Of a DNA stretch of 64,000 nt, positions 11,226 to 60,500 are shown piece by piece. The position numbers and the translations under genes are program-made. The stretch is from Felis catus (taxonomy: Eukaryota), in assembly GCF_018350175.1 (NCBI RefSeq), contig NC_058372.1, positions 4,030,001 through 4,094,000 on the forward strand, in the 5' to 3' direction. The notes below the pieces were generated by a model. The model searched no databases, was not told the origin of the DNA, and saw only the letters and a list, made by a program, of their open reading frames with translations. Position 1 is the stretch's first letter; every line of letters begins with the position of its first letter.

Positions 11226-11259
<34 letters not shown>

Positions 11260-11427
11260 CATTGCACAAAAATTAGCCCAGTAGATGACTCTTAAGCTGC
11301 AGGTATCCAGTCTAGTCCCAGTATTTGGGTAATAGTCACCCTTAAAGCATAGTTTAAAGTTGCTGGTTCACCTCCATGTGCTTCAGATAGTTCAGACTCT
11401 CTCTCTCTCTTTCTGCAGCTACTTAAT

Positions 11428-11633
11428 TTTTTTTAATGTTTATTTATTTTTGAAGGAGAGAAAGAGACTGAGCGGGAGAGGGGCAGAGAGAAAGGGAGAC
11501 ACAGAACCCCAAGCAGGCTCCAGGCTCCCAGCTGTCAGCACAGAGCCCGACGCTGGGCTTGAACCCACGAACCGCGAGATCATGACCTGAGCTCGAGGCA
11601 GACGCTTAACCGACTGAGCCCCCCCGGCGCCCC
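11428..11633 (-). mobile_element. SINEC
   Basis: TSD tctttctgcagcta. Confidence 0.9.
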
Positions 11634-11871
11634 TCTTTCTGCAGCTATTGTTTTGGATGATTTTGTTCCCTAAAGCTTTATTCCCTGGGGTTCTGGAGCT
11701 CTTGCTTCTACTAGGAAAAGGTGATGTTCTCTGTCACTTTGCAGAATTATCTTAGGAAAGAGGAGTTCTCTTCACTACCCCACAGCCTCTACCCCAAAAT
11801 AGCAAATGAGAAAAAGACCCACCCCCATCCCCTCAAAAGCAGAATGTTGAGGGGAAAGACTGAAGACTAAC

Positions 11872-11935
11872 CTGAGAGAGTGCAGGGTCCTCATTTCTTT
11901 CCAAAAAATGCCTCCAAGTTTTTCAGCATTTTCTC
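11872..11935 (-). other. SLC17A4: Probable non-coding exon 1 of SLC17A4 (TSS approximate)
   Basis: Donor CTCTCAG|GTTAGT at 11871, just downstream of an ATTTAAG TATA-like motif and HNF1 sites, about 7.7 kb upstream of the coding exon. Confidence 0.5.
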
Positions 11936-11940
11936 CAGTG

Positions 11941-12040
11941 CCTTAAATCCCCATGTGGTAAATGATTACCTCAAAACCGTTAGCCTGTAAGCTCCCCGGT
12001 GGGAAGATTTTACTGGGTCAGTGGTTTAATCTTTAACTTT
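11941..12040 (-). promoter_or_regulatory. Putative SLC17A4 promoter with two HNF1-type sites
   Basis: GGTAAATGATTACC (11957-11970) and TTTAATCTTTAAC (12025-12037) resemble the HNF1 consensus GTTAATNATTAAC. Confidence 0.5.
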
Positions 12041-13771
12041 AATTGGTCAATTGACAAGTAGACCAGACTCCTTAAATCGTCTTCATGCTTCGCAGCCAGC
12101 AAGGTCCCTCCTGTCTTCCCCAATCTTCCCATCAGAATCCGCGTTCCTTCTCTGTAGGGTCCTGACACCCCATGCCCCCCATTTCCAGGGGTGTTCATTC
12201 TGTTCTTCAGCAGGATGGGGTGTGTCCCCGTCCCCTTTGAGCCCTGTCTCCACCAGGACCGTTTGTCAGAACGAGGCTTTCGACAGAGCGGACACGTAGT
12301 ATCCACCGCGGTTGACTCAAATGCCTTGTGGCTTTATGATTATAGCTGTTGGCACAGAGACCACTGGGCTTTCTGTGAAAATTAACCGCCTGTGATTCCG
12401 CTCCCTTTGGCAGCAGAACATCTCAGAAGCTGCGCCCAGACCTGTGTTCTGTTCCCTTGTGTCCAGTTCATTCTCGAGCCCAGTCGAGATGAGAAAGCCC
12501 TTGGTGAAGCCATCAGTGACTTCCATGCTGGCAGATCCAGTGGCCAGTCCCTAGGTTTTGTCTGATAAGCCCGACAGCTTTCCTCACCTGCTTCTTGCCT
12601 GGATTGTTTCACTTGATTGTCACCGGTGAGCTGGACCTGATTTTCCTTGTGCCTCATTGGTTGCTGCTCCTGAATCTTTTTAGCAGGTTCTCATGTTTTC
12701 TCTAACCTCCCTTGTTGGTACGCCCAGGCTGGCGTCCTTGAATTTCTTCTGTGTTCAGGCTCACTCCCGAGATGAGCCCGGTCTCCTTTCTTACATGCCC
12801 TTCCTCTGACCTCTTCCCTCAGCTCAGAACTTGACCTCTTCAGCTGCCCTCATCTCTCCTTGAGTATCCAGGAGGTGCCTCGGTCTTAACATGACCACAA
12901 GAACGACTCCGGGACCCTCTCCATCTCCCCCTACCCTGGCGGGGGGGGGGGGGGGCATTACCATTTTCCCACCTAATCTTGCCCCAAACCTCAGAGTCTT
13001 TCTTAATTAGTCTGCTCTTCCCCTCGGTAGTGAGCCTTCACTCCACCAGCATGTTCCGTCGGCTCTACCTTCAGACGTTTCCAAATACCATCACTAGTCG
13101 TTTCCTCCATTTCTCACGCAATTGCCTGTCTTCCGAGTAAGTAGAACAGACTCTTACCTGGCCCACAGCTTCTCCTCTCTTTTAGTGCATCTCCACGCAG
13201 CAGGCATAATGTTGAAACTGTAAATATCATAACACTACTTACTGGTTTAAAGTTTTCCAGAGTTTTCTCCGTGAAATTAAGACAAAATGGGCCAAATTCA
13301 GTCTCTTGCAGGTGTCACTTATCAGGTCACTTGCTGACCTCTGCTCCATCCACTCTCCCTTTGCCTTCCCCGTGGAGCTCTTTCCTGCCTCAGGGCCTTT
13401 GCACTTATAGTTCCTCCTTCCAAAATGCCGAAATCCCCAAGTTGATTTCACATGTTTTATGATGTTATTGAAAACATAAAACACTTGAAAATATTTCTTC
13501 TAAGAAACCTCTAATGTGATGTTTGGATAGTAATCCCAAAAGATTATTAAAAGAAAAAAAAGTTTGAAGAAAACAACTCCAAACACAAATCTAAAGAAGT
13601 AGGTTCAAAAACCAGGAATGTATTTCTGTGATATGGGCAGGATGCATGGAAAAGTTGGCTGAGAACTCTGGAAAGTGAATAGCAGCACGAGGGTCGGAGA
13701 AGACTAGATTTGAGCATAGAATTTTACTTAAATTACTTTTACTTCTAATAAATTACAAAAATTACTACTTA

Positions 13772-13947
13772 GGGGCACCTGGGTGGCTCAGCTGGTTAAG
13801 CGTCCACCTCTTGATTTCAGCTCAGGTCATGATCTCACAGGTCCTGAGTTCAAGCCCCATGTCTGGCTCCGCACTGTCAGTATGGGATTCTCTCTCTCTC
13901 CCTCTCTGCCCCTCCCCCTTCTTTTTCTCAAAATAAATAAATTTTGA

Positions 13948-13999
<52 letters not shown>

Positions 14000-14020
14000 A
14001 GAAAGAAGGAAAAAGAAAGA
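13772..14020 (+). mobile_element. SINEC with (GAAA)n microsatellite tail
   Basis: SINE body 13772-13940, (GAAA)n at about 13946-14020. Confidence 0.9.
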
Positions 14021-16456
14021 TTACTACTTACAAGTAGAGTTTCTAATTTCTGTGTCCTAGCTTTCCTCTCTACTGTTAATGGCTATAAAAACAAAATCCT
14101 CCTCTTTGTGCTTTCCTTGGAAATACACATTTCTGGCCATTGATGGATTAAAAAAGTAAGCCTGTGCCTCATCTTTTTTTTCCCCCTTCTTTTCCTGTCT
14201 TGGCTGTAGATGTGAGCTCTGGAGGTGTAGCCCTATGGGAAGACCACAAGCTGGATTAGAATGAGGTATGAAATGACCCCCAAATCTCAGCTGCTTTTAA
14301 CAACAAAGGCTGATGTGATGTTTGCAGTTCATGTCCATTGTGTGTTGGCTGTAGCTGTGCATCATGTTACCATAACTCTAGGACCCATCTGATGAATGAG
14401 GCGTTGTCTGGAACATGAATGGTCTCATGGCAGAACCAAAAGAGAAATCGTGGTGACCGGGGTGCTGGATTAAAAGTTTTGCCTAGATGTCAATTCCACT
14501 CAAATTTCTTGGGGAAAAACAAGTCCTATGGCCAAAATTGACAGAACGGAGATAGAGAAGTATAACTCGTCCCNNNNNNNNNNNNNNNNNNNNNNNNNNN
14601 NNNNNNNNNNNNNNNNNNNNNNNNNNNNNNNNNNNNNNNNNNNNNNNNNNNNNNNNNNNNNNNNNNNNNNNNNNNNNNNNNNNNNNNNNNNNNNNNNNNN
14701 NNNNNNNNNNNNNNNNNNNNNNNNNNNNNNNNNNNNNNNNNNNNNNNNNNNNNNNNNNNNNNNNNNNNNNNNNNNNNNNNNNNNNNNNNNNNNNNNNNNN
14801 NNNNNNNNNNNNNNNNNNNNNNNNNNNNNNNNNNNNNNNNNNNNTGAACATGGGCTCCATATGGGACTCGATCTCAGGACTGCAGGATCATGACCTGAGC
14901 TGAATTGAAGAGTCAGACATGCAACCACCTGAGCCACCCAGGCGTCCCTCCAGGGAATGTTTTTGAACACTAATACAGTTTAACACAGTCTAGGCTTCTG
15001 TTAAACTGTCTTCCATTAATGCTCCTTTCTGCACACAAAACATAGCCAGCTTGATAGCCAGCTCTCAAGTCCCAGTGAACCAGAGCACCAGGCCTGACGG
15101 TCAGTGTTTTCATGGCATTATCTCATCAGTTGGAACGTGACCTCTCTTGTTCCAGAAACCCATGTATTAACAAGATGTCTTCCCTACACACACCCAGTGT
15201 GTGAGGCTAGAACACAGACAAGGCAACTGCTAATAGGGGAACACACAGTAGGTGCTACTGAAATCAGAAATCACACAGGAGACGGACAGGAGTCTCCAAA
15301 GGGGGTCCTGTACCCCATGGTGAGTACGGCAGTGCCCTCAGAACTTTCTTCAAGGCTCATGGCTCCACCCTCTGGGGGCATCTTCCCTCTCTGCCATCCG
15401 CTTTGGCCACATTTGAAGAGTCCTTGCAAACCAAGCAGATTTCTTGGCCGACCTCTGACAGTACAAAAAGTGGGAGGACCCCAAGTGACCTTTGAACCTT
15501 TGATGAGTCACAGCCTCCTGTAGCCTCTTTTATTCAGATTGGTAGCTCTCCGGTATTACACAACTCAGGATGTTCATCACCTTCTTATCTGTTTGCTTAC
15601 TTGTATCAGTAGCCACACCTACCTCTCGAGAGTTCATTCTCAGTCTCTCTCTTTCTCCTCCTTCCCTACCCTTCCCACCTCTGGATTTTGGATACATTGA
15701 GCCTATCAGGCTTCAGTAGGAAAGCCATCACTTTAATTTCATTTTCTTGAGCCATTTCGTTAACTAAAGTGTCTCACGGGACATTATCTCAGACCATTGA
15801 GAGACGGTTGTAACAGTGAGGTGGTCGCACCTTGATCTGGTATTTGCCCACGACTGAGCCTAAAAAGAGCTTTCTTGTTGAAATCATTTCTCGATTTTCC
15901 CTTTAACTGTTGGTGTTGGGAAGAAGTCGCTTCTTTCCACTCAGGAAGCCTAGAATTTTTAGTTTCTCTCAATTTCTTTCATTCCTGTTTGTAAACCAGC
16001 CAATTACTTTTGATTCTGTCTCCCCCCCCCCCCCACTTTTGGTAGTACTTTGTCAAATGTAGTCAGTAGCGCATCACACGATGTATGTTTATTTTGCCAA
16101 AAACTTCACCAAAACTAGTAAGGTCAATAGGGGAATTAGCTGTAAGTTATTGTAGGGAAAGCATTGTGCAAATTAGGGACACCTGTCCTTTCAAACCGTA
16201 ATAACAGTCTCTTTTTGTCCCCGTCCCATCCCTGGAGCCAATGGCAAAAATTGTGCCATCTTGGCTTTGTTTTGCTTTCACTATGTGGTAACACCCTCTG
16301 CTCTGCGCTAATTTCTGCATTGATCGGGAGTGTGGTTAAGCCGTGGTGGGCCAAGTGAAACCTCCATCTGGGGTGTTTTATTTCCTTTTCACGTTGCACA
16401 TGTAGCACGTGTAGACTGCCAGCATCCCCTGGCCCCATTATCTTCATGCCAGGCTG

Positions 16457-18387
16457 ATGGGCAGCCCCCCCGTGGGAAATACTGCCAGTCTCATGGCAGA
16501 GGAAGGAGAGAGTATGTGGGAAAACTTGACAGCTAGAAATTACATGTTATTTCTGCCTCGACTGCATTGATCAAGGCAAGTCCCGTGAACCGGATGGACA
16601 GCGTGTGGCAGAGAGGTACAACCCTTCCTCCAAGAAAGGCAGCAGATACCTGTGCGCACATAAGTAGTACGGAAAAATCGAAAAAGCCCGTTTCCTTCTG
16701 GCTTCATGGAACTAGTCTACGAGTTTGGGGCCACCTAGAAGCTGGAAAAAACAAAATTCTATTTGTTTATGCCGTTCCTTACAGTTCAAGAATTGAGCAG
16801 TGTCTAATCTGGTACTAAATTCACCTTTACGGAGTTTTATTTGCCCCCTCTGCCTTTTGCCCACATCTGTTTTCTTAATTTGGGTACTTTCTTTTTCATT
16901 AAAAAAGCTTTTTAATGTTTATTTCTTTTTGACCACGAGCAGACTTCCTGTTTGCTTCTGCTAAATAGCAAGGCCACTTGTATGTACATTTTATGACCTT
17001 GGTCTTCTTGTACTATGTAAATAGCATATATGTGAATCGAAAACTAAAGGATGTAGAGCCTGTGGTTATTAATTTTATTGGGAAGTATTTTGGGGTTTTT
17101 TGTTTGTTTTGTTGTGACCATCTAGAATATGGGCCAAGAGAGAAAAGCTTTTTGTCTGAGCAGATGAACAGATTTATTTTTTCGAGTTTGGCCCCCAGAG
17201 CAGCTGTGGCCTACTGTGCAGGTCCTGGCTCTGTGTGACAGCAATTAGGAGAAGACACTCTTTAGTGGGACCTGAAGTTTTATGTCGGTAAACAATAATT
17301 GAGAGTTACGGGCATACTCAATTGAGCTGATGAATATAATCAGAAAGAAACTACATTGCAGCCCTCTCTTTTTTTTTTTTTTTAATTTTTTTTTAAATTT
17401 TATTTATTTTTGAGACAGAGAGAGACAGAGCATGAACAGGGGAGGGTCAGAGAGAGAGGGAGACACAGAATCGGAAACAGGCTCCAGGCTCTGAGCCGTC
17501 AGCCCAGAGCCCGACGCGGGGCTCGAACTCACGGACTGCGAGATCGTGACCTGGCTGAAGTCGGTCGCTTAACCGACTGAGCCACCCAGGCGCCCCTGTT
17601 GCAGCCCTCTTATTGCTGGCGTCCTTCCTTTTCCATCTGGCTGCTCACCTGGCCGACCGAGTAATGGTGGGGATTTGGATGGATGGAGGAAAGGAGCTTA
17701 GTTTCCAGCAGGACGGGTGTTAGAGCTTGCTTCTATTTCTTCTTTCTAGAATGGCCTGGGAAGTGAACCTACTTGAGTTAATGTTCGGTTCTGAGCAACT
17801 TGAGGGAAAGGGCAGGAAGGTAACAACGGCCCGGGGGCACCTCCTCGGGTCCTTCCAGGCAAGGCTTGGAGAGAGAGAGCCTGGAGGTGATGTCAGGAAT
17901 GTCCTGGGGCTTCTCCACACTTTTTCAGAGGGGCCAGCTGTGCCCTGTGTTTTAGCAAAAATATCCCCGTTGGCCTGCTCCCGGGAAATGGACTTGGCCT
18001 TTACTGAATATTAGGCCTTTGTTAGCTGGCACTGAAGTGTCCTCAGATGGCCCTAGAGGGATGTTGTTGGAAGAAAAGCATTTGCTTGCTGGGTGTGGGT
18101 GCCCACCACAGGCTCCAGGGCCACCTCTGCAGCCCCTCGACACCTGAACTTGGCTCCCTCCAGGGCACAGCTGTCTGCAACTCCCAGCCCACCCTGCTAC
18201 TAAGGTCTGGGTCTCTGTCCTTGGTGCCTGTTCGGCGGGGGGGGGGGGGGAGCAGCAGCTGCCCCTAACCTCTGCTCTTCCTGTCACTTAGAGTTTTTTT
18301 ACTTCCGTCCAGCCACCTCCTCCTGTCTGCAGTCCTTTGAGTTTATGATTCTTCCTACTAAGCTTTCCTCACTCAGTTCGCTGTGCG
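16457..18387 (+). CDS. Tentative 5' exons of an uncharacterised spliced gene (16457-16511, 17164-17287, 17750-17819, 18026-18092, 18292-18387)
   Basis: AG/GT-bounded, phase-compatible and stop-free when joined. Several splice sites are only moderate and alternative acceptors exist. Confidence 0.3.
17368..17596 (-). mobile_element. SINEC_Fc
   Basis: Near-consensus; TSD ttgcagccctct. Confidence 0.95.
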
Positions 18388-19479
18388 GTTTGTCTCTCCT
18401 GATTGATGACTGATAGAACCATAGACTTGGCTTTGTGCCTATTACTGAATATGGAGCCATTTGGATCATAGTTTGGCCTGACATGCTCATTATTTAATGT
18501 TCTCCCAGAGGTGACATCTAACCTTTAATGTAGGAAATACATTGATCAATACTGATCACTTTTGAGCTTGTTCCTTATTAGGTTTGACCATACTCGTACA
18601 TTTTCTACTTAAATAAAAATGAAACATATTTTTTTGTGTAATTTATCTGTGATTCAACTTTCTCTCCATATTTTCCAGAACTTTTCTGCCTTTTTGAGGA
18701 GGGGGAAAAAAAAAACCACTCATAGCTAGTACACACACACACACACTCCTGGAAATAGTACGATATTTCATCATCAAACATGATATTGAACTTTAGGTTG
18801 AGATATATTTGGCTTATGTTAAGAATACTGTTAGTCTCGTTTTACTAAGCACTGTTTTCTTCAGGTAAAATAAGTAATAAGTAGGTACATATGCCCTTTG
18901 AGCAAATTTTGAATTTAACACTGTTTTGGGTCTTGGGATTTTTTTTTTTTTTTAGCACAAATGTTATTTAATATGAAAGCAAAATCTATGTTAAAATGTA
19001 TGTTTTTTTAAATTTATGTTTTTAAAATTTAATAGTAACTAGTTAATAAAGTAACATGAAAAGTGAATGAGAGGGTTGGGAAGGGAATATTTGATCATGG
19101 CGCTATTGGACTACAGTTTTTGCGGCCTACTCCTATTTGAAATTTCCATGTAAATTATGTACATTATACATATATATCCAGTTTGTTTTCTGGAAAAAAC
19201 AGACTAATTACCATCAAGTCAATATTAAAGTGCTTTGTATTGAAAACTACAGCTCCCCTTCCTTGAGCAGTGGGCTTTAGGACATTGGATTGGAAGGCAG
19301 TGGAATAAATAATGTATTTGTGTGTGACTTAAGATGTAAAATGACTTGTGAAGAGAGGAAGGCTATTCTGAGGAACTGTAGCACTGATGTGAAAAAGATG
19401 AACACATGTTTTCAGAAATAATCTGTTAAAGTAAAACCACCCCCAAATGTATGAATATCTTTCTACCAAATGTTAGTTC

Positions 19480-20290
19480 TTTTTTGTTTAAGTTTTCATT
19501 TAAATTCTAGTTAATGTACCTGGAAGATTGGTTTCGGGTGTCCAATTTAGTGATTCAACACTTACATACATACAACACCCAGTCCCCACAAGTGCTGTCC
19601 TTAATCCCCATCACCTGTCTCCCTTGTGCCCCTCCCACCGCCCCTCTGGTGCCCATCAGTTTGTTCTCTGTAGTGTAGTTCTTGGTTCTCCTTTCTCTTT
19701 GTGTCCCTATGCTCGTTTGTTTTGTTGCTGAAATTCCACATATGAGTGAGATCATACGGTGTTTATGAGTGAGATCATACAGTATTTGTCTTTCTCTGAT
19801 TTATTTCTCTCTAGCCCTATCCACATTGTTCCAAATGGCAAGATTTCATTCTTTTTTATGGTTGAGTAGTATTCCATTGTGTATATATGCCACATCTTCC
19901 TTAAGTTTGTTTATTTTGAGAGAGAGAGAAAGCATGAGTTGGGGAGGGGGGAAAGAGAGGGAGAAAGAGAGCATCCCAAACAGGCTCCCCACTGTCAGTG
20001 CAGAACCTGACTCGGGGCTCAAACTCACACACCGTGAGATCATGACCTGAGCCGAAGTCAGGCACTACATTGATTGAGCCACCCGGGCACCCCTATGTTA
20101 CGTCTTCTTTATCCATTCATCAGTTGATGGACACTTGGGCCATTTCCATAATTTGGCTGTTGTAGGTAATGGTGCCGTAAACATCAGGGTACATGTATCC
20201 CTTCGAATTAGTATTTTGTATTTTTTGGGTAAATACCTAGTGGTGCCATTGCTGGATCATAGGGTAGTTCTACTTTTAACTCTTGTACTC
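19480..20290 (-). mobile_element. L1 3' fragment with nested SINEC (about 19900-20093)
   Basis: Reverse L1 3'UTR motifs (ttccacatatgagtgagatcatac; tttatccattcatcagttgatggacacttg). Confidence 0.85.
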
Positions 20291-20422
20291 TCAGTGGGAA
20301 TGCAGACTGGTGCAAAAACGGTATGGAGTTTCCCCAAATGTTAGTTCTAAGAGAAGAATTGGGAAGTCTTTGCACCTGCCCATCTTACATATCAGTCCTG
20401 CCTCTACTACTCTGCTCCCTAG

Positions 20423-21938
20423 TCACTCCCCTCTCAAGTGAGATTATGTCAGAGAAACTACTGTCATGTGAGTTTATTTTAAGTAAGGCCAGTTTCAAAT
20501 TTTTAATAAAATGGATTCTTTTTGAAAGCACAAAAGATGAAATCTCATTAAGGAAAAGTATCAGTTATGTGGCGTATATTATATGAATGTGATTTTACAT
20601 CCACGTGAGCCGTAAGACCAAGCGTGACCACACTACACAGTACCTCTGATTTCATTACACCTCTTAACCACTTGTGGGGTCTTGCTTTGTCTATGCTTTG
20701 GCTTCTCTTCAAATCACTAATCTTTTATGTTTATTTTCTCGATGGGAAGAGAGTACATTTTACCTACACAAATCTAAGGCCATTTAAATACAAGCTTGTC
20801 GATGTGAAAATTGATGACCAATGTATCGAAATTACAAGACAAAGTTGTTACATTCTAATATTTACCCGGAGCAAATCAGTCATATAACTCGTTTGACCGC
20901 TGTCTCAAGAGCCACGGGCCAGAATGAAATTCATTTTTATGGAGAAGAATGATGAATAAAACGGGAATAAGGACTAGGTCTAGGTTCTCAATAGTATTGG
21001 TGATGAATTGAAAGGAAATCTTTTGGTTTGGTGTTATAAGTCCCCTATTATACATTTCCCCAGGTTATATACTGGTTCTTGGAAGGACACTCCTGACTAG
21101 AAGATACTTGGAGAAATTACACAGCTTGGAGGTGAGGGGACATTGCCATGTCCTTGGGGTCCTCCGCCATCGGGCACTTGAGCTGAAACTCATGCCTGAA
21201 AACCTCGGGCTGAAAGTTTACGTGCCTCCTTCCATTGCCGCTAATCCCATCACCATGTAAGCCCAGCTCCTTACATCGTTGAAAGAAATGCCCTAAAATA
21301 AGGTCTCCCTGCCCAGCCATGACTAGCTACATCTTTATTTTTCTTTCTCAAGCACTACATTGTTGTCATGGTGGCAGAACACTTGGACTTTGCTCCGTTA
21401 CCCTAGGATAGCTCCACGGATGCCCTGACCGAAAAGATGACAGTGCTGCCCAAGACCCTGCTGGGTCAGCTGCTCTGCCCGCCCATAGGAGATGGTAAGT
21501 GGCTCACCTCCTACGCGCATCCTCTGTAGCCATGGGCATCAGGACTCCCTCTTTGGTGATGTTCTCAGTGAACTGCTTGGGGAGGCCCTTGTCCTTCACA
21601 TCAAAGATTGTTTTTAGAGGACTGTGAATTTATCAATGAAAATGGTGATAAATGAAAATACCTCCTTTTATGGGCAGTCTCTTGCTGGGAGTCAGTCAGC
21701 TGCTATGTTCTGACGCTTTGTGACTGAAACAGGCGTCATTGTCTATTACGACCTGATTGCCAAAGGAGTGCCACCATCTTGGAAGCTGGCCACCATACCA
21801 GGTAAGCAATGAAGTCATGGGAAAGGACGATACTGTCTTAGAGTTGGCCATGGTTAAATGCTGTGCCTGGTGGTTTTGTCTAATAGTCCACAACAAGACG
21901 TATGGTGGTGACAAGGACTGTCTCTTGCAGGCTTTTGA
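20423..21938 (+). CDS. 3' exons of an uncharacterised spliced gene (20423-20467, 21064-21131, 21407-21494, 21733-21801, 21931-21938 ending TGA)
   Basis: Strong donors (GTGAGT, GTGAGG, GTAAGT, GTAAGC) and mostly pyrimidine-rich acceptors. Junction phases 1-0-1-1 give ..TPLSSEIMSEKLLSCYILVLGRTLLTRRYLEKLHSLEDSSTDALTEKMTVLPKTLLGQLLCPPIGDGVIVYYDLIAKGVPPSWKLATIPGF*. AATAAA at 22695-22700. Confidence 0.55.
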
Positions 21939-23121
21939 CACTAATGACGATAAAACTATCAGTTCACTATTGAACATATGATGCTGGGCTTTTTTTGTTG
22001 TTGTTACTGTTCACTCAACGATTTTTGGAATGTATCCCATTGTCCTCAGTTTACTAAGGATTTTTAACTTTACAGTACCTACAGCGAGCATCTTCAAATG
22101 TGTTTTTTAGTAACCATTGTTACGAATATGGTACTGTAGCAGGGTTGACTGACTAATTTGGCGAATCACCTTTATGGATGTACCAGTATGGAATCATCCT
22201 CATGTTCTGGGAAGGAACCCTAGGAGGCAGTCCTATGATACGCCGCTTAAAGATCATCAGAAACCAAAGTGTTTTGAAAACAACTAAGTTTCCAAACTAA
22301 GGGCTGTGATTAATTATGTCTTCCTTGTTGATAGTGGCTCTGAATCACACAGTTCCTTGGTAAGACACGATGCATCTTTTTGCTGAATTTATTATTTACA
22401 ATTTGGGACACACAAGCTGTGGCAAACCATTACAAGTGATGTCATAAACATCTGAGTTCTCCAAGTTGATTATGATTAATTCCACTTATTATTAGGGTTG
22501 CAAAATAAGCTTGTGAGCCCTCACCTCTGTCTTAAAGTCAAACACGCGATTTTTATTTCCAGGCAAGTCTTTTAGCACTTCCGAAGCCATCTTGTGCAAT
22601 GCACTGTTTCTAGAAAGCCTCTGAGGACTCGTTAACTGGAAGGAGTGTGGGAGAAAGTTTTTCAAGTAAAGGAAGGTCTCTAAGGAGAAAAACTAATAAA
22701 TTCCCCCTTGGGGCCCATGCGTTTTGGTCTTTAAGAGGTTTCAGCTGCACGATCAGAGTATTGTGAGCACCAAGTCAGTCCTCTCTGAAAAGAGGCCATT
22801 TCATCTGTTTTGGCTACTTAGATGATTGATACTCCATCAGTCTGAGATACAAGGACCTGGAGCCTGGGAGAAAGCCTTCAACTTAGGGAAGACTATAATG
22901 GGAATAACGAGTAGGTTTTGTTTCCTCTCTGTTTTCTCTAGTACAGGGAAAAGAAGTTCTTCCCATAATCCCTCTTCCCCTCAGGAAACATGTTAGGATT
23001 TGAAGACAAAGAACAAGTGAGTGTTAAAAGGTTTTTGTTTTTTGTTTTTTGTTTTTTTTTTTTTGCTTCTCCCTGTCCTCTGTGCATGTATACTCAGGGG
23101 CCTCTCTCAGATGTATGGTTT

Positions 23122-23506
23122 TGTCAACATGAAAAGTAAAAACAGCCAGTAATTTTACCAGAAAAATGGGTTTATTTGGGAATAGCAGAGGATTTGCAAT
23201 TTGGGACACACCAGCTGTGGCAAACCATAGGCAAGTCCAGAGATCAAAGGAGAGGAGTATTACTGTGTAGAGAAAAGGAGGAAGTCCGGAGGGGCTGCTT
23301 TAAAGGAAAGCCCAATGGAGGAAAGTGAGGGTTCAGGGTGGTGACAGTTTCTCATTGGCTGAGTTGTGGCATTTTCTTATTGGCTGAGCTTGTTGCTGGG
23401 CAAGAAGAAAGTCTGCCTTCCTCCCGCCGGAATAGTAAAGTAGGTTTCTTCCGCTCCTTTCTGGTCTTGACTCCATTTTTAAATGAGGTTTCCTTTACTC
23501 AGTTTC
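23122..23506 (-). mobile_element. Probable solo LTR
   Basis: TG start; reverse poly(A) signal tttatt and two attgg (CCAAT) boxes in LTR-like order. Confidence 0.5.
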
Positions 23507-25299
23507 CTAGTTTAGAGACAGAGATGTGCTGGTAAATGTTTAATGACTGACTCTGAGAGAAAAATAAGCACACGTATATGTACGTACGTATATATGTACA
23601 AATGGTGTATAAAACGTGATACTGCTTGAAGGTTGATGTAAAAATTTCTGTTAAATATTTCTTTATAGAGTTGTAGAAATAAATTTTAAGTTAAAATGCT
23701 TCTTGGAAATTCAGGTTAGACCTAAAACTTCAAATGAATGGCTATTTCTTGCAAAATAGCAATTTTATAATTTTTATAAAATTATAGCCATTGTTATAAT
23801 TTTATTGCCAACAGCAGTGTCACAAAATCAAACTGGAAATAACTGCTTAACTGCTTGGTTGCCATCCATTTCCATGACAAGAAGTCACACACACCACTGA
23901 CCAGTGAGTTTAGAGCTGGCATAAATGTTGGTTATTTTCTTTTATTTCTTTTTTTAAAATTTCACCGAATCAGACAAATGGGTGTCGGAATATTGCTCAG
24001 ATGGCAATGACGTGAGCAAATACCTTGTGCAATCAGATACTGGAAGAATATTTGTTAAATACTTTGGGTTATTTACCCGTGTCTACGGATACATGGCTGA
24101 TGCGGTGGCTACAGATGTATCCCACTTTTACATTTAATCCACATTTTCTACACGATGTTCTAGATGATCAACAAAACCTTAAATTTGAAGAGTCAACAAA
24201 ACAATAAGTAAAGTCCTGATTTACAGCACTAGTTGATTTCCATGGTGTAAAAATCCCACCAGGCTGATTTCTAGCTACCGGCCCATCTCTGAAATCAGAG
24301 TTGGGAAGTTGTGCGCAGCATCATGCCGTTAAATGGCCCTCTGTCATTCACATGTGGTTGGTGAAAATAGCCTCAGGAGCACAGATGATAGTCAATGTTG
24401 GCAAATAATTGGGAAGTGGTGAGGATCTCCAACTGTTGTAAATTTAATTTACTTAATTGCAACTTTATGTAATTTAATTTTTCAATAATGGTGATGCTGG
24501 ACAACAAGCTTGGAGAATCCCCAAAAATGTAACCATTGGGCCTCACGGGTAGCACAACACTGGCTCTGCGGTGACAAGTTGTAGGGATTAGGCCGCAAAG
24601 GTGACCCCTCCGTGCCTTGGGTGGGGCTCCTCTGTCTCCCTCACTGGACCTTGGCCTTTTCTCTGCATGGCATTTAGTGACTCCCTCATCCAGGCCCGGC
24701 TCTCATAGTCTTGTCCTTGGAGAAGTCAACCCAGTAGCTCTCATAGACTTCTGTACATATGTCTGCTGCAGCAAAAGCTTTTTTAAGACCTAACGATTAC
24801 GTGAAATTATCTGCTTCGTTTATCTGTTCACTCCCCTATCCATAAGCTCCTTAAAAGGTGGTCTGGTTTGCCACTGATTTCCCAGGGCCAGGCGCAGTGT
24901 CTGTCACATGGGCATGCTCAGTAACCCTTGTTTGATGAGTGGGTGGATGACATTTTAAGTCCTTAACTATACTGATGTTCCGAGGCTACACCGTGTACTT
25001 CCTGGTGTATGTTTCCTTAATAATGCACTTGGTTCATTTTTATATGATTCTGTTTTGGGACTTCTGCATGTACTCTAGTATTTCAGCATGCTTTTGAGTT
25101 TTCCTGTGCTACGTTTGTCTTGTTTTCATCAGAGTAATGTTAGCTCATAGCATGCCATAGAAGTTACTGTATTTTTTTATGGTTTATAAAATCTGGGTTT
25201 GTTCGTTGGTTTAAGTTTCTGGTGGAAATAGAAGGCATCTGACTAAGAATGTATCATCAAAGAATTATATTCAGAAGTCATTAGAAATAATGTATTCTT

Positions 25300-39499: not shown

Positions 39500-39913
<414 letters not shown>

Positions 39914-39959
39914 CTAAACGGGTTCTAACGGAAAAAATTTCCGTTAGGGCGGGTACAGG

Positions 39960-40115
39960 GCCTATTTATAGTCTGACTTGGGTTGTGATTTGCTATCTGA
40001 TTGGCTGATCGTCTGGGATCCAATCTGAGGGCCTTCCTGGAATCACCTCATGTACCATCATCCAATCAGATGTTGGCTGCCCGATGCGTCATTGAGCGCC
40101 GTGCCTATAAATACC
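39960..40115. promoter_or_regulatory. TH2A/TH2B-type bidirectional promoter
   Basis: TATAAATA on both strands (39963-39970 -, 40106-40113 +), CCAAT boxes at 39997, 40020 and 40062, CRE-like TGCGTCA at 40085; octamer position altered to ATGTACCA (40050-40057). Confidence 0.85.
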
Positions 40116-40165
40116 ACCCTTGCCGCCCTCCAGTCTATTAGTCTGGTCGGAGCTATTCAATAGCG

Positions 40166-40546
40166 ATGGCGGAGCTGATTTTCAACGGCACGACCATTTC
40201 TAAGAAATGCTTCAAGAAAGCTGTAACCAAAACCCAGAAGAAGGAAGGAAAGCGCAGGCGATGCCGCAGGGAGAGCTATTCCGTTTATGTCTACAAGGTG
40301 CTGAAGCAGGTGCACCCCGACACCGGCATCTCGTCCAAGGCCATGAGCACGATGAACTCCTTCGTCGGTGACATCTTCGAGCGCATCGCGGGCGAGGCGT
40401 CGCGCCTGGCGCACTACAACAAGCACTCGACCATCACGTCCCGGGAGATCCAGACGGCCGTGCGCCTGTTGCTGCCCGGGGAGCTGGCCAAGCACGCCGT
40501 GTCCGAGGGCACCAAGGCCGTCACCAAGTACACCAGCGCCAAGTAG
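40166..40546 (+). CDS. Histone H2B type 1-A-like paralogue (second TH2B/H2B.1 copy), 126 aa, intact ORF
   Basis: Complete H2B ORF with a TH2B-type tail ([21 protein letters not shown]), TATA box and downstream stem-loop. Confidence 0.88.
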
Positions 40547-40580
40547 GACTCCCATCAGTAGGCAAGGTTTATAACCCAAA

Positions 40581-40618
40581 GGCTCTTTTAAGAGCCACCC
40601 ACAATTCTGAAGGGACTG
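40581..40618 (+). terminator. Histone stem-loop plus downstream purine-rich element
   Basis: CCCAAA-GGCTCTTTTAAGAGCC-ACCCA, then GAAGGGACTG (HDE-like). Confidence 0.92.
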
Positions 40619-41614
40619 TATAAGCTCTTAGTTAATGTGAGTCGGTCTTCATCTAGAGAAACTTATGGTTTTAGCAGCAAATTGATTTCACTGCTTGCCA
40701 AGTTTACTTTGCTCACCGTAGAATATGCTTGAAGAAAATGCTTGAGAAATAACTTTGCACGAGAGTGGTTGCATTATATACATGTTATACATATTTATGT
40801 TATACATATTTATAATGCATGTTATGTATTAAAATATATAATCTATATAATCCTACATCTGCACTTTTCAGTGAGGCTTGAGATCTAGGTGAAGCAATTT
40901 GGAAAGGGGAGTCATTTGAACAGAAGTTGCAATAATCCTGTGTCCTTGGAGGAGAGGTCCTTCCATGGGCCGTGAGGGCCATGGGAATATGGCTCGCCTT
41001 TCTCTAGGAGTCTTAGTTTTAAGTACCCTCTCAGATTACCAGGCAAGGAGCCTGGAGCTGTGGAAAAACTCAGGACAGTCTAGTACCCGAGCATTAGGTT
41101 ATTACCTGTTTTGCTTCCACTTTACATTGGCTGGTGTGTGAAAAATGTCCTGTGGATCAGGCTAGCTGTCCATTAACTGCTGATACTTGAGGACCAAAGC
41201 TCAGTTTGTTGATCTGACTTAATTTGAACATTTATTGCCATCCCTAAACTGGGCTATTTGTTGAACAGATTGACAAGAGTGTGGAGATCTTGCCGCGACA
41301 CCTAATTCACATGTGTTACCCGATAGTCAGGCTAACCACAATCAGCCTGGCAAACAGATAACGTGAGTTGAGTTGACTCTCTTTTGCATAACTTCTTACA
41401 AGTTATAATAGGATCATCTTTGTTTTGTGATTGGATCATTAAACTCGCATTTGTGCTATTACTGGACTCAAATACCGAGACGTCCCAAATCGGGTCATAT
41501 GGTATTTATCAAAATAGGATGCCCAGTATTCAAGTCACGTGACTTTGGGTACAAGATCATAATCATCTGGATGCTTCTTAGAGAGCCCACAAGCATTTAA
41601 AGAAAATCAGTGAT

Positions 41615-51089: not shown

Positions 51090-51473
51090 CTACTTGGAGC
51101 TGGTGTACTTGGTGACGGCCTTGGTGCCCTCGGACACGGCGTGCTTGGCCAGCTCCCCGGGCAGCAGTAGACGCACGGCCGTCTGGATCTCCCGGGACGT
51201 GATGGTCGAGCGCTTGTTGTAATGCGCCAGGCGCGACGCCTCGCCCGCGATGCGCTCGAAGATGTCAGTGACGAAGGAGTTCATGATGCTCATGGCCTTG
51301 GACGAGATGCCGGTGTCGGGGTGCACCTGCTTCAGCACCTTGTAGATGTAAATGGAATAGCTCTCCTTGCGGCATCGTTTGCGTTTCTTGCCTTCCTTCT
51401 TCTGGGTTTTGGTTACAGCTTTTTTGAAGCCTTTTTTGGAAATGGTCGTGCCTTTGGAAGTCAGCTCCGGCAT
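51090..51473 (-). CDS. H2BC1: Histone H2B type 1-A (TH2B / H2B.1), 127 aa
   Basis: [58 protein letters not shown] carries TH2B diagnostic residues; TATA box and stem-loop; divergent from H2AC1. Confidence 0.95.
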
Positions 51474-51564: not shown

Positions 51565-51735
51565 GGTATTTATAGGCACAGTGCTGACATGACGTACAGA
51601 GCAGACACCACCTGATTGGATATCGGGTGGTGGCGTGAATGTAAATGAGGTGATTCCGGCGAGGCTTCTGATTGGGTAGATGACCATCAGCCAATCAGAT
51701 AGCAAATCATAACCTCCCAGCAGGCTATAAATAGG
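51565..51735. promoter_or_regulatory. TH2B/TH2A bidirectional promoter
   Basis: TATAAATA 51567-51574 (-) and 51726-51733 (+), CRE-like TGACGTA at 51590, CCAAT boxes at 51612, 51668 and 51691, octamer variant ATGTAAAT 51639-51646. Confidence 0.9.
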
Positions 51736-51787: not shown

Positions 51788-52183
51788 ATGTCTGGACGAG
51801 GGAAGCAGGGAGGCAAGGCTCGCGCCAAGGCCAAGTCCAGGTCTTTTAAGGCCGGGCTGCAGTTNNNNNNNNNNNNNNNNNNNNNNNNNNNNNNNNNNNN
51901 NNNNNNNNNNNNNNNNNNNNNNNNNNNNNNNNNNNNNNNNNNNNNNNNNNNNNNNNNNNNNNNNNNNNNNNNNNNNNNNNNNNNNNNNNNNNNNNNNNNN
52001 NNNNNNNNNNNNNNNNNNNNNNNNNNNNNNNNNNNNNNNNNNNNNNNNNNNNNNNNNNNNNNNNNNNNNNNNNNNNNNNNNNNNNNNNNNNNNNNNGCGC
52101 AGGGCGGCGTCCTGCCCAACATCCAGGCCGTGCTGCTGCCCAAGAAGACCGAGAGCCACCGCCACAAAGCCCAGAACAAATAA
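51788..52183 (+). CDS. H2AC1: Histone H2A type 1-A (TH2A / H2A.1); core in gap 51865-52096
   Basis: [23 protein letters not shown] ... [28 protein letters not shown]; TH2A-type C-terminus; 131-codon span. Confidence 0.88.
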
Positions 52184-53786: not shown

Positions 53787-54447
53787 GGGGGAGTTAAGAT
53801 GGCATAGTAGTAAGGGGACCCTGAGCTTGTTCTGTCCCTGGAGCACAGCTAGATCAACATCAAACCATTTTGAACACCTAGAGGATTGATCTGGGCATTA
53901 ATCTGAACGAGAGCGAGAGAGGCAGGTACGCAGTGCAGAGAGGTGAACTGGGGGAAAGAAAAGCCAAGGTGCCGCGGAGGGCAGGGAGCCTTTTTTGCAG
54001 AGACCGGACAGAGCGACAAAGGAGGGCAGGGGAGAGGGCAGAGGAGAGGGCAGTGCATCAGGATCTTGAAAGAAAACCACTCCCCCCAAAGTAGCTGGAG
54101 AGAAAAAAGAGTGAAAATACTCGCAGGGACTGCACAAGAGATCTGTTCCCCCAAACCACCGATGGGAAAAGGAGAGGGTTTCAATACCGCCAGTTTTTTA
54201 TGATCAGTGGAGCGCAGCATCTGAAGTCTCGGGGCTCAGTGCCCGGTGACAGTCTGGCGAGGAATCCCCGGGAGCAGGCAGCACGGTCTGAGGGAGAGGT
54301 CTGTTGGGAGAGGTGTGGGGTGGGGGCTGGGCTATGTGGGCGATGGGCATTGAAGGCACCTGTTAGGATGAGCCCTGGGTGTTATATGAAACTGATGAAT
54401 CACTAAATTCTGTTCCTGAAACCAATGCTGCACTATAAGTTAACTAA
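53787..54447 (+). mobile_element. Internally deleted L1 (5'UTR joined to 3'UTR)
   Basis: GGGGGAGTTAAGATGGC L1 start; after about 530 nt it switches to carnivore L1 3'UTR (gatgggcattgaaggcacc..gatgaatcactaaattct..aagttaactaa). Confidence 0.7.
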
Positions 54448-54590
54448 NNNNNNNNNNNNNNNNNNNNNNNNNNNNNNNNNNNNNNNNNNNNNNNNNNNNN
54501 NNNNNNNNNNNNNNNNNNNNNNNNNNNNNNNNNNNNNNNNNNNNNNNNNNNNNNNNNNNNNNNNNNNNNNNNNNNNNNNNNNNNNNNNNN

Positions 54591-57500
54591 ACAAATTGGT
54601 TTCCATACAACATCTAGTGCTCATCCCAAAAGGTGCCCTCCTCAATACCCATCACCCACCCTCTCCTCCCTCCCACCCCCCATCAACCCTCAGTTTGTTC
54701 TCAGTTTTTAACAGTCTCTTATGCTTTGGCTCTCTCCCACTCTAACCTCTTTTTTTTTTTTCCTTCCCCTCCCCCATGGGTTCCTGTTAAGTTTCTCAGG
54801 ATCCACATAAGAGTGAAACCATATGGTATCTGTCTTTCTCTGTATGGCTTATTTCACTTAGCATAACACTCTCCAGTTCCATCCACGTTGCTACAAAAGG
54901 CCATATTTCATTTTTTCTCATTCCCACGTAGTATTCCATTGTGTATATAAACCACAATTTCTTTATCCATTCATCAGTTGATGGACATTTAGGCTCTTTC
55001 CATAATTTGGCTATTGTTGAGAGTGCTGCTATGAACATTGGGGTACAAGTGCCCCTATGCATCAGTACTCCTGTATCCCTTGGATAAATTCCTAGCAGTG
55101 CTATTGCTGGGTCATAGGGTAGGTCTATTTTTAATTTTCTGAGGAACCTCCACACTGCTTTCCAGAGCGGCTGCACCAATTTGCATTCCCACCAACAGTG
55201 CAAGAGGGTTCCCGTTTCTCCACATCCTCTCCAGCATCTATAGTCTCGTGATTTGTTCGTTTTGGCCACTCTGACTGGCGTGAGGTGATACCTGAGTGTG
55301 GTTTTGATTTGTATTTCCCTGATAAGGAGCGACGCTGAACATCTTTTCATGTGCCTGTTGGCCATCCGGATGTCTTCTTTAGAGAAGTGTATATTCATGT
55401 TTTCTGCCCATTTCTTCACTGGGTTATTTGTTTTTCGGGTGTGGAGTTTNNNNNNNNNNNNNNNNNNNNNNNNNNNNNNNNNNNNNNNNNNNNNNNNNNN
55501 NNNNNNNNNNNNNNNNNNNNNNNNNNNNNNNNNNNNNNNNNNNNNNNNNNNNNNNNNNNNNNNNNNNNNNNNNNNNNNNNNNNNNNNNNNNNNNNAATTC
55601 ACTTTTGCTTTTAATTCCCTTGCCTTTGGGGATGTGTCGAATAAGAGATTGCTACGGCTGAGGTCAGAGAGGTCTTTTCCTGCTTTCTCCTCTAAGGTTT
55701 TGATGGTTTCCTGTCTCACATTCAGGTCCTTTATCCATTTTGAGTTTATTTTTGTGAACGGTGTGAGAAAGTGGTCTAGTTTCAACCTTCTGCATGTTGC
55801 TGTCCAGTTCTCCCAGCACCATTTGCTAAAGAGGCTGTCTTTTTTCCATTGGATGTTCTTTCCTGCTTTGTCAAAGATTAGTTGGCCATACGTTTGTGGG
55901 TCTAGTTCTGGGGTTTCTATTCTATTCCATTGGTCTATGTGTCTGTTTTTGTGCCAATACCATGCTGTCTTGATGATGACAGCTTTGTAGTAGAGGCTAA
56001 AGTCTAGGATTGTGATGCCTCCTGCTTTGGTCTTCTTCTTCAAAATTCCTTTGGCTATTCGGGGCCTTTTGTGGTTCCATATGAATTTTAGGATTGCTTG
56101 TTCTAGTTTCGAGAAGAATGCTGGTGCAATTTTGATTGGGATTGCATTGAATGTGTAGATAGCTTTGGGTAGTATTGACATTTTGACAATATTTATTTTT
56201 CCAATCCATGAGCAGGGAATGTCTTTCCATTTCTTTAAATCTTCTTCAATTTCCTTCATAAGCTTTCTATAGTTTTCAGCATACAGATCCTTTACATCTT
56301 TGGTTAGATTTATTCCTAGGTATTTTATGCTTCTTGGTGCAATTGTGAATGGGATCAGTTTCTTTATTTGTCTTTCTGTTGCTTCATTGTTAGTGTATAA
56401 GAATGCAACTGATTTCTGTACATTGATTTTGTATCCTGCAACTTTGCTGAATTCCTGTATCAGTTCTAGCAGACTTTTGGTGGAGTCTATCGGATTTTCC
56501 ATGTATAATATCATGTCATCTGCAAAAAGCGAAAGCTTGACTTCATCTTTGCCAATTTTGATGCCTTTGGTTTCCTTTTGTTGTCTGATTGCTGATGCTA
56601 GAACTTCCAGCACTATGTTAAACAGCAGTGGTGAGAGTGGGCATCCTTGTCGTGTTCCTGATCTCAGGGAAAAAGCTCTCAGTTTTCCCCGTTGAGGACG
56701 ATGTTAGCTGTGGGCTTTTCATAAATGGCTTTTATGATCTTTAAGTATGTTCCTTCTATCCCGACTTTCTCAAAGGTTTTTATTAAGAAAGCGTGCTGGA
56801 GGGGCGCCTGGGTGGAGCAGTCGGTTAAGCGTCCGACTTCAGCCAGGTCACGATCTCGCGGTCCGTGAGTTCGAGCCCCGCGTCGGGCTCTGGGCTGATG
56901 GCTCAGGGCCTGGAGCCTGTTTCCGATTCTGTGTCTCCCTCTCTCTCTGCCCCTCCCCCGTTCATGCTCTCTCTCTGTCACAAAAATAAATAAAAAAACG
57001 TTGAAAAAAAAAAAAAAGAAAGGGTGCTGGATTTTGTCAAAGGCCTTTTCTGCATCGATTGACAGGATCATATGGTTCTTCTCTTTTTTTTTGTTAATGT
57101 GATGTATCACGTTGATTGATTTGCGAATGTTGAACCAGCCCTGCATCCCAGGAATGAATCCCACTTGATCATGGTGAATAATTCTTTTTATATGCCGTTG
57201 AATTCGATTTGCTAGTATCTTACTGAGAATTTTTGCATCCATATTCATCAGGGATATTGGCCTGTAGTTCTCTTTTTTTACTGGGTCTCTGTCTGGTTTA
57301 GGAATCAAAGTAATACTGGCTTCATAGAATGAGTCTGGAAGTTTTCCTTCCCTTTCTATTTCTTGGAATAGCTTGAGAAGGATAGGTATTATCTCTGCTT
57401 TAAACGTCTGGTAGAACTCCCCTGGGAAGCCATCTGGTCCTGGACTCTTATTTGTTGGGAGATTTTTGATAACCGATTCAATTTCTTCGCTGGTTATGGG

Positions 57501-60500
57501 TCTGTTCAAGCTTTCTATTTCCTCCTGATTGAGTTTTGGAAGAGTGTGGGTGTTCAGGAATTTGTCCATTTCTTCCAGGTTGTCCAATTTGTTGGAATAT
57601 AATTTTTCATAGTATTCCCTGATAATTGTTTGTATCTCTGAGGGATTGGTGGTAATAATTCCATTTTCATTCATGATTTTATCTATTTGGGTCATCTCCC
57701 TTTTCTTTTTGAGAAGCCTGGCTAGAGGTTTGTCAATTTTGTTTATTTTTTCAAAAAACCAACTCTTGGTTTCGTTGATCTGCTCTACAGTTTTTTTAGA
57801 TTCTATATTGTTTATTTCTGCTCTGATCTTTATTATTTCTCTTCTTCTGCTGGGTTTAGGCTGCCTTTGCTGTTCTGCTTCTAGTTCCTTTAGGTGTGCT
57901 GTTAGATTTTATATTTGGGATTTTTCTTGTTTCTTGAGATAGGCCTGGATTGCAATGTATTTTCCTCTCAGGACTGCCTTCGCTGCGTCCCAAAGCGTTT
58001 GGATTGTTGTATTTTCATTTTCGTTTGTTTCCATATATTTTTTAATTTCTTCTCTAATTGCCTGGTTGACCCACTCATTCGTTAGTAGGGTGTTCTTTAA
58101 CCTCCATGCTTTTGGAGGTTTTCCAGACTTTTTTCTGTGGTTGATTTCAAGCTTCATAGCATGGTGGTCTGAAAGTATGCATGGTATAATTTCAATTCTT
58201 GTAAACTTATGAAGGGCTGTTTTGTGACCCAGTATATGATCTATCTTGGAGAATGTTCCATGTGCACTCGAGAAGAAAGTATATTCTGTTGCTTTGGGAT
58301 GCAGAGTTCTAAATACATCTGTCAAGTCCATCTGATCCAATGTATCATTCAGGACCCTTGTTTCTTTATTGATCTTGTGTCTAGATGATCTATCCATTGT
58401 TGTAAGTGGAGTATTAAAGTCCCCTCCAATTACCAAATTCTTATCAACAAGGTTGCTTATGTTTGTGATTAATTGTTTTATATACTTGGGGGCTCTCATA
58501 TTCGACGCACAGACATTTATAATTGTTAGCTCTTCCTGATGGATAGACCCTGTAATTATTATATAATGCCCTTCTTCATCCCTTGTTACAGCCTTTAATT
58601 TAAAGTCTAGTTTGTCTGATATAAGTATGGCTACTCCAGCTTTCTTTTGGCTTCCAGTAGCATGATAAATAGTTCTCCATCCCCTCACTCTCAATCTAAA
58701 GGTGTCCTCAGGTCTAAAATGAGTCTCTTGTAGACAGCAAATAGATGGGTCTTGGTTTTTTATCCATTCTGATACCCTATGTCTTTTGGTTGGCGCATTT
58801 AATCCATTTACATTCAGTGTTATTATAGAAAGATATGGGTTTAGAGTCATTGTGATGTCTGTATGTTTTATGCTTGTAGTGATGTCTCTGGGACTTTGTC
58901 TCGCAGGGTCCCCCTTAGGATCTCTTGTAGGGCTGGTTTAGTGGTGACAAATTCCTTCAGGTTTTGTTTGTTTGGGAAGACCTTTATCTCTCCTTCTATT
59001 CTAAATGACAGACTTGCTGGATAAAGGATTCTTGGCTGCATATTTTTTCTGTCTAGCACCCTGAAAATCTCGTGCCAATTCTTTCTGGCCTGCCAAGTTT
59101 CAAAAGAGAGATCAGTCACGAGTCTTATAGGTCTCCCTTTATATGTGAGGGCACGTTTACCCCTTGCTGCTTTCAGAATTTTCTCTTTATCCTTGTATTT
59201 TGCTGGTTTCACTGTGATATGTCGTGCAGAAGATCGATTCAAGTTATGTCTGAAGGGAGTTCTCTGTGCCTCTTAGATTTCAATGCCTTTTTCCTTCCCC
59301 AGTTCAGGGAAGTTCTCAGCTATTATTTCTTCAAGTACCCCTTCAGCACCTTTCCCTCTCTCTTCCTCCTCTGGGATACCAATTATGCGTATATTATTTC
59401 TTTTTAGTGTATCACTTAGTTCTCTAATTTTCCCCTCATACTCCTGGATTTTTTTCTCTCTCTTTTTCTCAGCTTCCTCTTTTTCCATAACTTTATCTTC
59501 TAGTTCACCTATTCTCTGCCTCTTCAAGCCGAGCTGTGGTGGTTTCCATTTTGTTATGCATTTCATTTAAAGCGTTTTTCAGCTCCTGGTGACTGTTCCT
59601 TAGTCCCTTGATCTCTGTAGCAAGAGATTCTCTGCTGTCCTGTATACTGTTTTCAAGCCCAGCGATTAATTTTATGACTATTATTCTAAATTCACTTTCT
59701 GTTATATTATTTAAATCCTTTTTGATCAGCTCATTAGCTCTTGTTATTTCCTGGAGATTCTTCTGAGGGGAATTCTTCCGCTTGGTCATTTTGGATAGTC
59801 CCTGGCGTGGTGAGGACCTGCAGGGCACTTCCCCTGTGCTGTGGTGTATAACTGGAGTTGGTGGGCGGGGCCGCAGTCAGACCTGATGTCTGCCCCCAGC
59901 CCACCGCTGGGGTCACAGTCAGACTGGTGTGAGCCTTCTCTTCCCTTCTCCTAGGGGCGGGATTCACTGTGGGGTGCCATGGCCCGTCTGGGCTACTTGC
60001 ACACTGCCAGGCTTGTGATGCTGGGGATCTGGCGTATTAGCTGGGGTGGGTAGGCAAGGTGCACAGGGGCAGGAGGGGCAGGCTTAGCTCGCTTCTCCTT
60101 AGGTGATCCACTTCAGGAGGGGCCCTGTGGCAGCGGGAGGGAGTCAGATCCGCTGCCGGAGGTTTGGCTCCACAGAAGCACAGAGTTGTGTGTTTGCGCG
60201 GAGCGAGCAAGTTCCCTGGCAGGAACTGGTTCTCTTTGGGGTTTTGGCTGGGGATGGGCGGGGGAGATGGCGCTGGCGAGCGCCTTTGTTCCCCACCAAA
60301 CTGAGCTCTGTCGTCCGGGGGCTCAGCAGCTCTCCCTCCCTTTGTCCTCCAGCCTTCCCGCTTTCCGAGCAGAGCTGTTAACTTATGACCTCCCAGACGC
60401 TAAGTCGCGCTTGTTGTGGGAACACAGTCCGTCAGGCCCCTCCGCTTTTGCCAGCCAGACTCGGGGGCTCTGCTTGGCCGGCGAGCCGCCCCTCCGCCCA

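Follow-up and report, generated by a model that had tools for sequence, protein, structure and literature searches.

The question raised by this locus is whether H2BC2, the second H2B.1-type (TH2B) gene of the domestic cat, encodes a working germline histone or is a duplicate on its way to being lost. A first-pass annotation of the stretch of Felis catus DNA analysed here (64,000 nucleotides of contig NC_058372.1, hereafter the window) had offered two options, a functional variant or an incipient pseudogene, and so omitted the middle case of an expressed, redundant copy. On balance we lean towards this middle case, in which H2BC2 is a paralogue of the H2B.1 class that is expressed but redundant and on which selection has relaxed in cats. 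Across felids its protein has changed unusually fast, and we propose as the likely cause that selection eased while its H2A neighbour, H2AC2, lost its normal start codon.

According to the relevant passages of Seal et al. (2022, PMC9526256), H2BC2 carries a VGNC name in cat (VGNC:109896), dog, pig and macaque and is the orthologue of human H2BC2P, and human, horse and cattle carry it as a pseudogene. The supplement of Raman et al. (2022, PMC8857922) prints a cat sequence, Cat_H2B.1.2, which by eye differs from the H2BC2 of the window only at residues 6 and 23; in the same comparison the H2BC1 of the window corresponds to their Cat_H2B.1.1. As the gene is published under both names, H2BC2 is a known gene with a cat sequence in print. 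The earlier description, which placed a second, intact TH2B where the human genome has H2BC2P, is correct, but it had passed over the published name and sequence. The passages of Seal et al. that deal with H2BC2 give no rates or expression for it, and a felid-wide acceleration is absent from the abstract, sections 8-10 and supplement part 17 of Raman et al. In the open-licence literature we found no account of this acceleration, with its divergence of H2BC2 on the felid stem and continued fast change, of the likely good expression of the gene, or of an H2AC2 neighbour that is without its ATG throughout felids.

The gene order runs from H2AC1/H2BC1 to H2BC2/H2AC2 and on to SLC17-family exons past the left edge of the window, so that at the SLC17A end of histone cluster 1 H2BC2 forms a head-to-head pair with a gene of the H2A.1 type. 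These exons are found on the minus strand 3.6-6.5 kb beyond the window, and the other SLC17-family matches of the cluster are on the opposite strand. The synteny noted earlier, with H2BC2 lying toward SLC17A4, holds through these exons; the name SLC17A4 for the adjoining gene and a human gene order matching that of the cat are our assumptions. A short ORF stretch at about 4087-4177 (minus strand) of the window, near the SLC17-family exons beyond its edge, presumably resembles the first coding exon of SLC17A4.

H2BC2 has the layout of a replication-dependent clustered histone gene, with an intronless ORF, a 3' stem-loop and a downstream element (Table 1). All 126 codons are open, without a stop or frameshift, the ATG has a G both at -3 and at +4, a strong context, and no disabling lesion was found in the ORF, start codon or 3' processing signal in the cat genome. 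We thus reproduced the earlier reading of ORF, TATA box, stem-loop and HDE-like element as intact. The contigs of sequencing run X1, described below, start at 40151, about 45 nt past the first base of the TATA box. The variant seen in the loop of the hairpin recurs in three other H2B genes of the same genome, and the purine-rich element, by its position and its likeness to canonical genes, would be the histone downstream element. The promoter shared with H2AC2 contains CCAAT boxes at 40000 (minus strand), 40020 and 40062 and a CRE-like half site at 40087. The H2B octamer ATTTGCAT, which has a role in S-phase transcription, is exact in 15 of the 22 other H2B loci scanned, with a variant in one more, the upstream DNA covered being 105-200 nt only. 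A motif scan returned no octamer in the H2BC2 promoter and a one-mismatch site in that of H2BC1. The octamer-like site of H2BC1, ATTTACAT, lies at 51639-51646, and its counterpart in H2BC2 (40050-40058) is altered and adjoins a 15-bp deletion, so that coupling to S phase would be expected to weaken.

Table 1. Features of the H2BC2/H2AC2 and H2BC1/H2AC1 gene pairs, in window coordinates.
Feature	Position	Strand	Basis or remark
H2AC2, head-to-head partner of H2BC2	39500..39904	-	GTG for ATG at 39902-39904
H2AC2 TATA box	39963..39970	-	sequence
H2BC2/H2AC2 shared bidirectional promoter	40000..40091	.	promoter alignment, motif scan
H2BC2 TATA box TATAAATA	40106..40113	+	sequence, motif scan
H2BC2 (H2B.1.2) coding sequence	40166..40546	+	126 aa, intronless; ORF, felid orthologues, published name and sequence
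Histone 3' stem-loop	40581..40596	+	folds as usual 6-bp hairpin
HDE-like purine-rich element (U7 site)	~40609..40619	+	~13 nt past stem-loop
H2BC1 (TH2B, H2B.1.1)	51090..51473	-	conserved paralogue, reference for comparison
H2AC1 (TH2A), intact	51788..52183	+	likely H2A partner in trans

H2BC1 provides a stable reference, with an identical protein on 23 contigs and a branch length of 0 in the protein tree. Against it, H2BC2 is about 90% identical and shows all of the 13 substitutions and the one deleted codon reported earlier, the gap being placeable at any of three neighbouring codons; we count 10 purely silent codons where about nine silent changes had been given. The pairwise NG86 estimates are dN 0.052 and dS 0.127, and the resulting omega of 0.41 (p 0.02-0.05 against neutrality) compares with 0.05-0.16 in the six canonical H2B pairs computed, which bears out the fast protein divergence already proposed. 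The number of lysines falls from 20 in H2BC1 to 16, arginines in the tail rise from three to five, and the net charge is 15 versus 18. I41V, I43V and S126A bring in residues that canonical H2B uses too. We take T63, G69 and H88 to correspond to canonical I61, N67 and R86, whose presumed sites are the H2A/H4 interface, helix 2 and the DNA-binding loop L2, respectively. Conversion from canonical H2B was considered as a source of the divergence and rejected for the cat: from codon 38 on, H2BC2 has 13 mismatches to H2BC1, 16-19 to 16 of the 21 canonical genes compared and 26-33 to the other five, and its V41 and V43 codons differ from the usual canonical ones.

Here, we used a protein search and cluster look-up, which returned 13 named full-length H2BC2 proteins from 14 other felid species, all intact, and three unnamed ENA proteins in addition to the window's own. 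In a tree of 44 proteins, whose bootstrap was not fully settled, all 16 felid H2BC2 rows cluster together (99/97) on a stem of 0.057, and this cluster falls on the H2B.1 side of a branch (100/99) that cuts off the nine canonical rows. For a parsimony count, 14 leaves were taken, the 13 named proteins and P0129 for the cat (P0121, P0130 and P0131 being left out), and placed on an assumed felid topology. No two of the 14 proteins are the same, and of the 38 changes counted the tail accounts for 21 and the fold for 17. Eleven positions (2, 5, the deleted Lys, 32, 36, 41, 43, 63, 69, 88 and 126) are unlike H2BC1 in 12-14 of the 14 felids, which could mean that selection holds them.

Other residues are less widely shared. 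The G15C change described for the cat is present there, but C15 is common to only 7 of the 14 proteins; likewise S6F is found in the window and yet is a polymorphism within cats, as proteins P0129-P0131 and, in the supplement of Raman et al. (PMC8857922), the cat sequence have S6. Two amino-acid polymorphisms can thus be listed for the cat, S6/F6 (window 40182) and T23/I23 (window 40233), and one of the two peptides proposed earlier for mass spectrometry includes residue 6, so that the S6 allele would escape it. The tiger protein is without H88, that of the lion without A126 and that of the snow leopard without T63, G69 and H88. The snow leopard protein (P0126) carries canonical G62, I63, N69 and R88 within residues 62-88 of the felid H2BC2 frame, and this stretch is likely to be a gene-conversion tract from a canonical H2B donor. 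The segregating alleles and the snow leopard losses indicate that the new residues are not strictly needed. Singleton changes occur at conserved fold positions (D53A, S58P, Y85F and E115G), and H88 is also listed by Raman et al. (PMC8857922) for the H2B.1 of rabbit, horse and one rhino, and is therefore a tolerated change.

The first-pass annotation had spoken of a carnivore germline variant, a proposal that we reject. The four caniform H2B.1 proteins compared, from bears, seals and mustelids, all have 98-99% identity with cat H2BC1, the two panda copies in the list of Raman et al. (PMC8857922) are nearly identical, and in a tail-focused search the clusters above 78% identity (four of the eight matches) were all felid. 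Judged by the proteins seen, which include no hyena, mongoose or civet, the divergence appears to be felid and not carnivore-wide.

The head-to-head partner H2AC2 has GTG in place of its ATG, in the window as well as in the DNA contig of run X3, a TAG in frame four codons before that position, a C-terminal docking region shortened by a 21-nt deletion, and a stop codon changed from TAA to CAA, followed by a read-through tail. Its body is near-identical to canonical H2A, its C-terminal end resembles that of H2AC1, and its protein matches a record named for cat and cheetah. Val replaces the start Met in 6/6 named felid records that reach it (cat/cheetah, clouded leopard, jaguar, leopard, tiger and snow leopard; seven species), a count that leaves out the ENA protein P0148, which may be chimeric, and the Iberian lynx protein P0149, which stops short of the start. 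As these records come from both felid subfamilies, the loss of the ATG predates the split between them; the first-pass annotation made no mention of it. H2AC2 is thus likely to be a felid pseudogene catalogued as coding, and with GTG at the normal start, the coding status that it is given in the passages of Seal et al. (PMC9526256) is doubtful; we flag the cat gene as a probable annotation error. Initiation at the GTG may nevertheless occur. The cat model starts at an ATG at 40058 (minus strand), which is upstream of the H2AC2 TATA box, and needs a splice, and the database models use differing upstream ATGs. P0148, whose contig is possibly a chimera, has both the deletion and a Met at the H2A start; the seven-residue deletion itself is present in the cat/cheetah and clouded leopard records and is not in the four Panthera or the Iberian lynx records. 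In the intact H2AC1, codons 17-21, just before the fold, read S-R-S-F-K versus canonical T-R-S-S-R.

How much selection acts on H2BC2 is best judged with its neighbour in view. Felid H2BC2 has 0.27 changes per nonsynonymous site in the tail versus 0.087 in the fold (p 0.0005), an excess that would fit a fold that is either constrained or converted. The branch omega is 0.64-1.13, not different from 1, on the assumption that all amino-acid changes and 4-7 silent ones fell on the H2BC2 branch. Under neutrality 1.8-9.1 disabling hits would be expected and none was seen (P0 0.16 to <0.001), given assumed tree lengths of 0.09-0.25 substitutions per site, assumed mutation rates and dates, and a protein database that shows intact copies only. 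In the same species, the H2AC2 body has 4 changes in 112 columns; the 90 columns of the H2BC2 fold have 8, and three or four of these revert to canonical. As the body of the ATG-less H2AC2 is no faster than the H2BC2 fold, a slow fold is no proof of selection. Moreover, H2AC2 has only two differences from a canonical H2A in its first 373 nt, which in a gene without its ATG points to strong conversion at the locus. Taken as a whole, we still regard purifying selection on H2BC2 as likely.

Expression was approached through 24 listed sequencing runs, 14 of which hold half or more of the query words. Four runs were mapped, over the region 39875-40285 only; their tissue is not on record, and that X1 and X10 are RNA and X3 is DNA is a guess of the mapping software. 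In X1, 49 contigs lie between 40151 and about 40280, the exact ones at a depth of 10,984-24,833, contig depth being a poor measure of expression. None lies over the H2BC2 promoter, though the 5' UTR and the tail are covered, and holes in coverage as such prove nothing. The 31-mers of four X1 spans are absent from H2BC1 and from the 22 other H2B loci fetched. The X1 contigs break at 40232/40234 into two alternatives at depths of 16,500 and 12,324, the letter of the second not being shown; the break fits the presence of both T23 and I23 alleles. Run X10 holds one H2BC2-specific 31-mer at a depth of 3,300, pieces with H2BC1-like mismatch counts at 13,300 and 14,556, and no contigs over 40151-40204. 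In X3 promoter and gene are covered at a depth of 7 and a contig matches 39875-40246 without difference, so that an assembly error behind the H2AC2 GTG or the H2BC2 F6 is not supported, with the proviso that X3 may be the sample that was assembled. Run X24, on record as RNA, gave no H2BC2 reads from about 1 in 100 read, which is no test. Ten runs, of which X10 alone was mapped, hold 0.52-0.58 of the query words, close to the transcript's share of 0.55-0.57, a lead rather than evidence. The ten supplements of a poly(A) study of cat testis (PMC8611880) contain no row 'histone H2B type 1-A' for either H2B.1 copy, which says little because an mRNA kit was used. From the gene-specific contigs in the runs taken to be RNA, H2BC2 is likely to be transcribed.

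Three readings have to be weighed against these results. H2BC2 could be a new felid germline variant, in which selection for a looser nucleosome that is harder to acetylate favoured a burst of changes on the felid stem, with the tail now evolving under positive selection. We regard this as unlikely, and we are similarly sceptical of the fuller version in which H2BC2, on the felid stem, was released from its tie to an H2A partner, acquired a tail with more Arg and less Lys and three fold residues that destabilise the nucleosome, is abundantly expressed beside TH2B and took on a felid-specific job in germline chromatin. The burst would comprise the Lys-to-Arg changes in the tail, the deleted Lys and T63, G69 and H88, and the shift from lysine to arginine counted above agrees with it. 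The eleven widely shared positions have persisted despite canonical donors able to overwrite the fold, as did happen in the snow leopard; the frame has stayed open while the adjoining H2AC2 gathered three or four lesions; and the X1 contigs are deep and apparently represent both residue-23 alleles. A 13-nt frameshift in H3-4 is reported for Felidae in the consulted part of PMC13396413, and one might argue from it that the germline histone set has shifted in this family; it is context and supports none of the readings of H2BC2. Against selection for a new role, omega on the H2BC2 branch is not demonstrably above 1, snow leopard, tiger and lion each lack some of the residues concerned, H88 is tolerated in the H2B.1 of other mammals, and the fold singletons look like drift.

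At the other end, H2BC2 could be an incipient pseudogene with a live promoter and a transcript but no selection, whose fold is slowed and whose lesions are mended by conversion from about 20 canonical H2B genes and H2BC1. The conversion traced in H2AC2, the similar rates of the H2AC2 body and the H2BC2 fold and the branch omega near 1 all speak for it, as does an orthologue that is dead in human, horse and cattle (in the passages of Seal et al., PMC9526256). The protein database would show intact copies only, and an Iberian lynx H2BC2 protein was not seen in the protein search, though the lynx H2AC2 model was. Canonical donors, however, are unable to repair the H2BC2 start codon or tail, and if the fold is given a weight of only 0.3, the assumed rates still predict 1.8-5.1 disabling hits, against none in 15 species (P0 0.16-0.006). 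The 3' stem-loop and TATA box are intact in the cat genome, gene-specific X1 contigs exceed a depth of 10,000 with none over the promoter (the RNA status of the run being guessed), and translation would be expected of an abundant mRNA whose start codon is strong. We therefore consider this reading quite unlikely, and rank it below that of a new variant.

The expressed, redundant paralogue that we prefer could operate as follows. The shared bidirectional promoter, with its CCAAT, CRE-like and TATA elements, would drive H2BC2 in germ cells, and the mRNA would be cut after the stem-loop. As translation of H2AC2 would not begin at its usual codon, the H2BC2 protein, which is likely to be made, would find its H2A among the products of H2AC1 or of canonical genes. 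Under weak selection the frame would stay open and the fold functional, with canonical H2B or H2BC1 now and then overwriting parts of the gene by conversion, and the tail would change at about the neutral rate. Drift of this kind is likely because H2BC1 does the essential job. From the presumed roles of the sites, T63, G69 and H88 would yield a slightly looser nucleosome, a change in the same direction as in TH2B.

The resemblance to TH2B/H2BC1 is close: the best single-domain structure matches to H2BC2 are H2B type 1-A chains (nucleosomes 3x1t, 3wkj and 5gsu), and the two share the tail type, C34, S62 and a head-to-head H2A.1-type partner. H2BC2 differs in its 126 residues, 13 substitutions, four fewer lysines, altered octamer-like site and decayed partner gene. 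In the examined parts of Raman et al. (PMC8857922), local duplication of H2B.1 together with H2A.1 is reported for the H2B.1 class, as seen here for H2BC2/H2AC2, and one gene of such a pair may survive after its partner is lost. Rates were derived there from the least divergent paralogue and H2B.1 is called slowly evolving, unlike felid H2BC2; the cat is not among the RNA-seq species. H2B.L and H2B.W, as described in the same parts, resemble H2BC2 in the lineage-specific turnover and fast protein change of germline H2B genes, but are old, deeply diverged classes for which positive selection is reported. With the H2BC2/H2AC2 pair, nature has run a small experiment on the routes by which a duplicated histone, exposed to gene conversion, turns into a variant or a pseudogene. 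If the H2BC2 protein is confirmed, it may matter for felid germ-cell chromatin, and if it is indeed a felid variant, its place would be in the chromatin of meiotic cells, spermatids or oocytes of a family from which H3.4 has gone as well.

Some minor observations were made on other sequences. Of two other clustered H2B genes, L014 (G000:C13:3270150-3270950) and L017 (G000:C13:3677400-3678200), one has a frameshifted C-terminus and 128 residues, and the other has Cys for Tyr near the C-terminus and did not match the stem-loop pattern used. In the window, a long LINE-1-like element at about 54400-59800 (minus strand) contains a SINE-like insertion and disrupted reading frames that resemble ORF2 and ORF1; the LINE-1 and SINE family names are ones that we presume from the translations.
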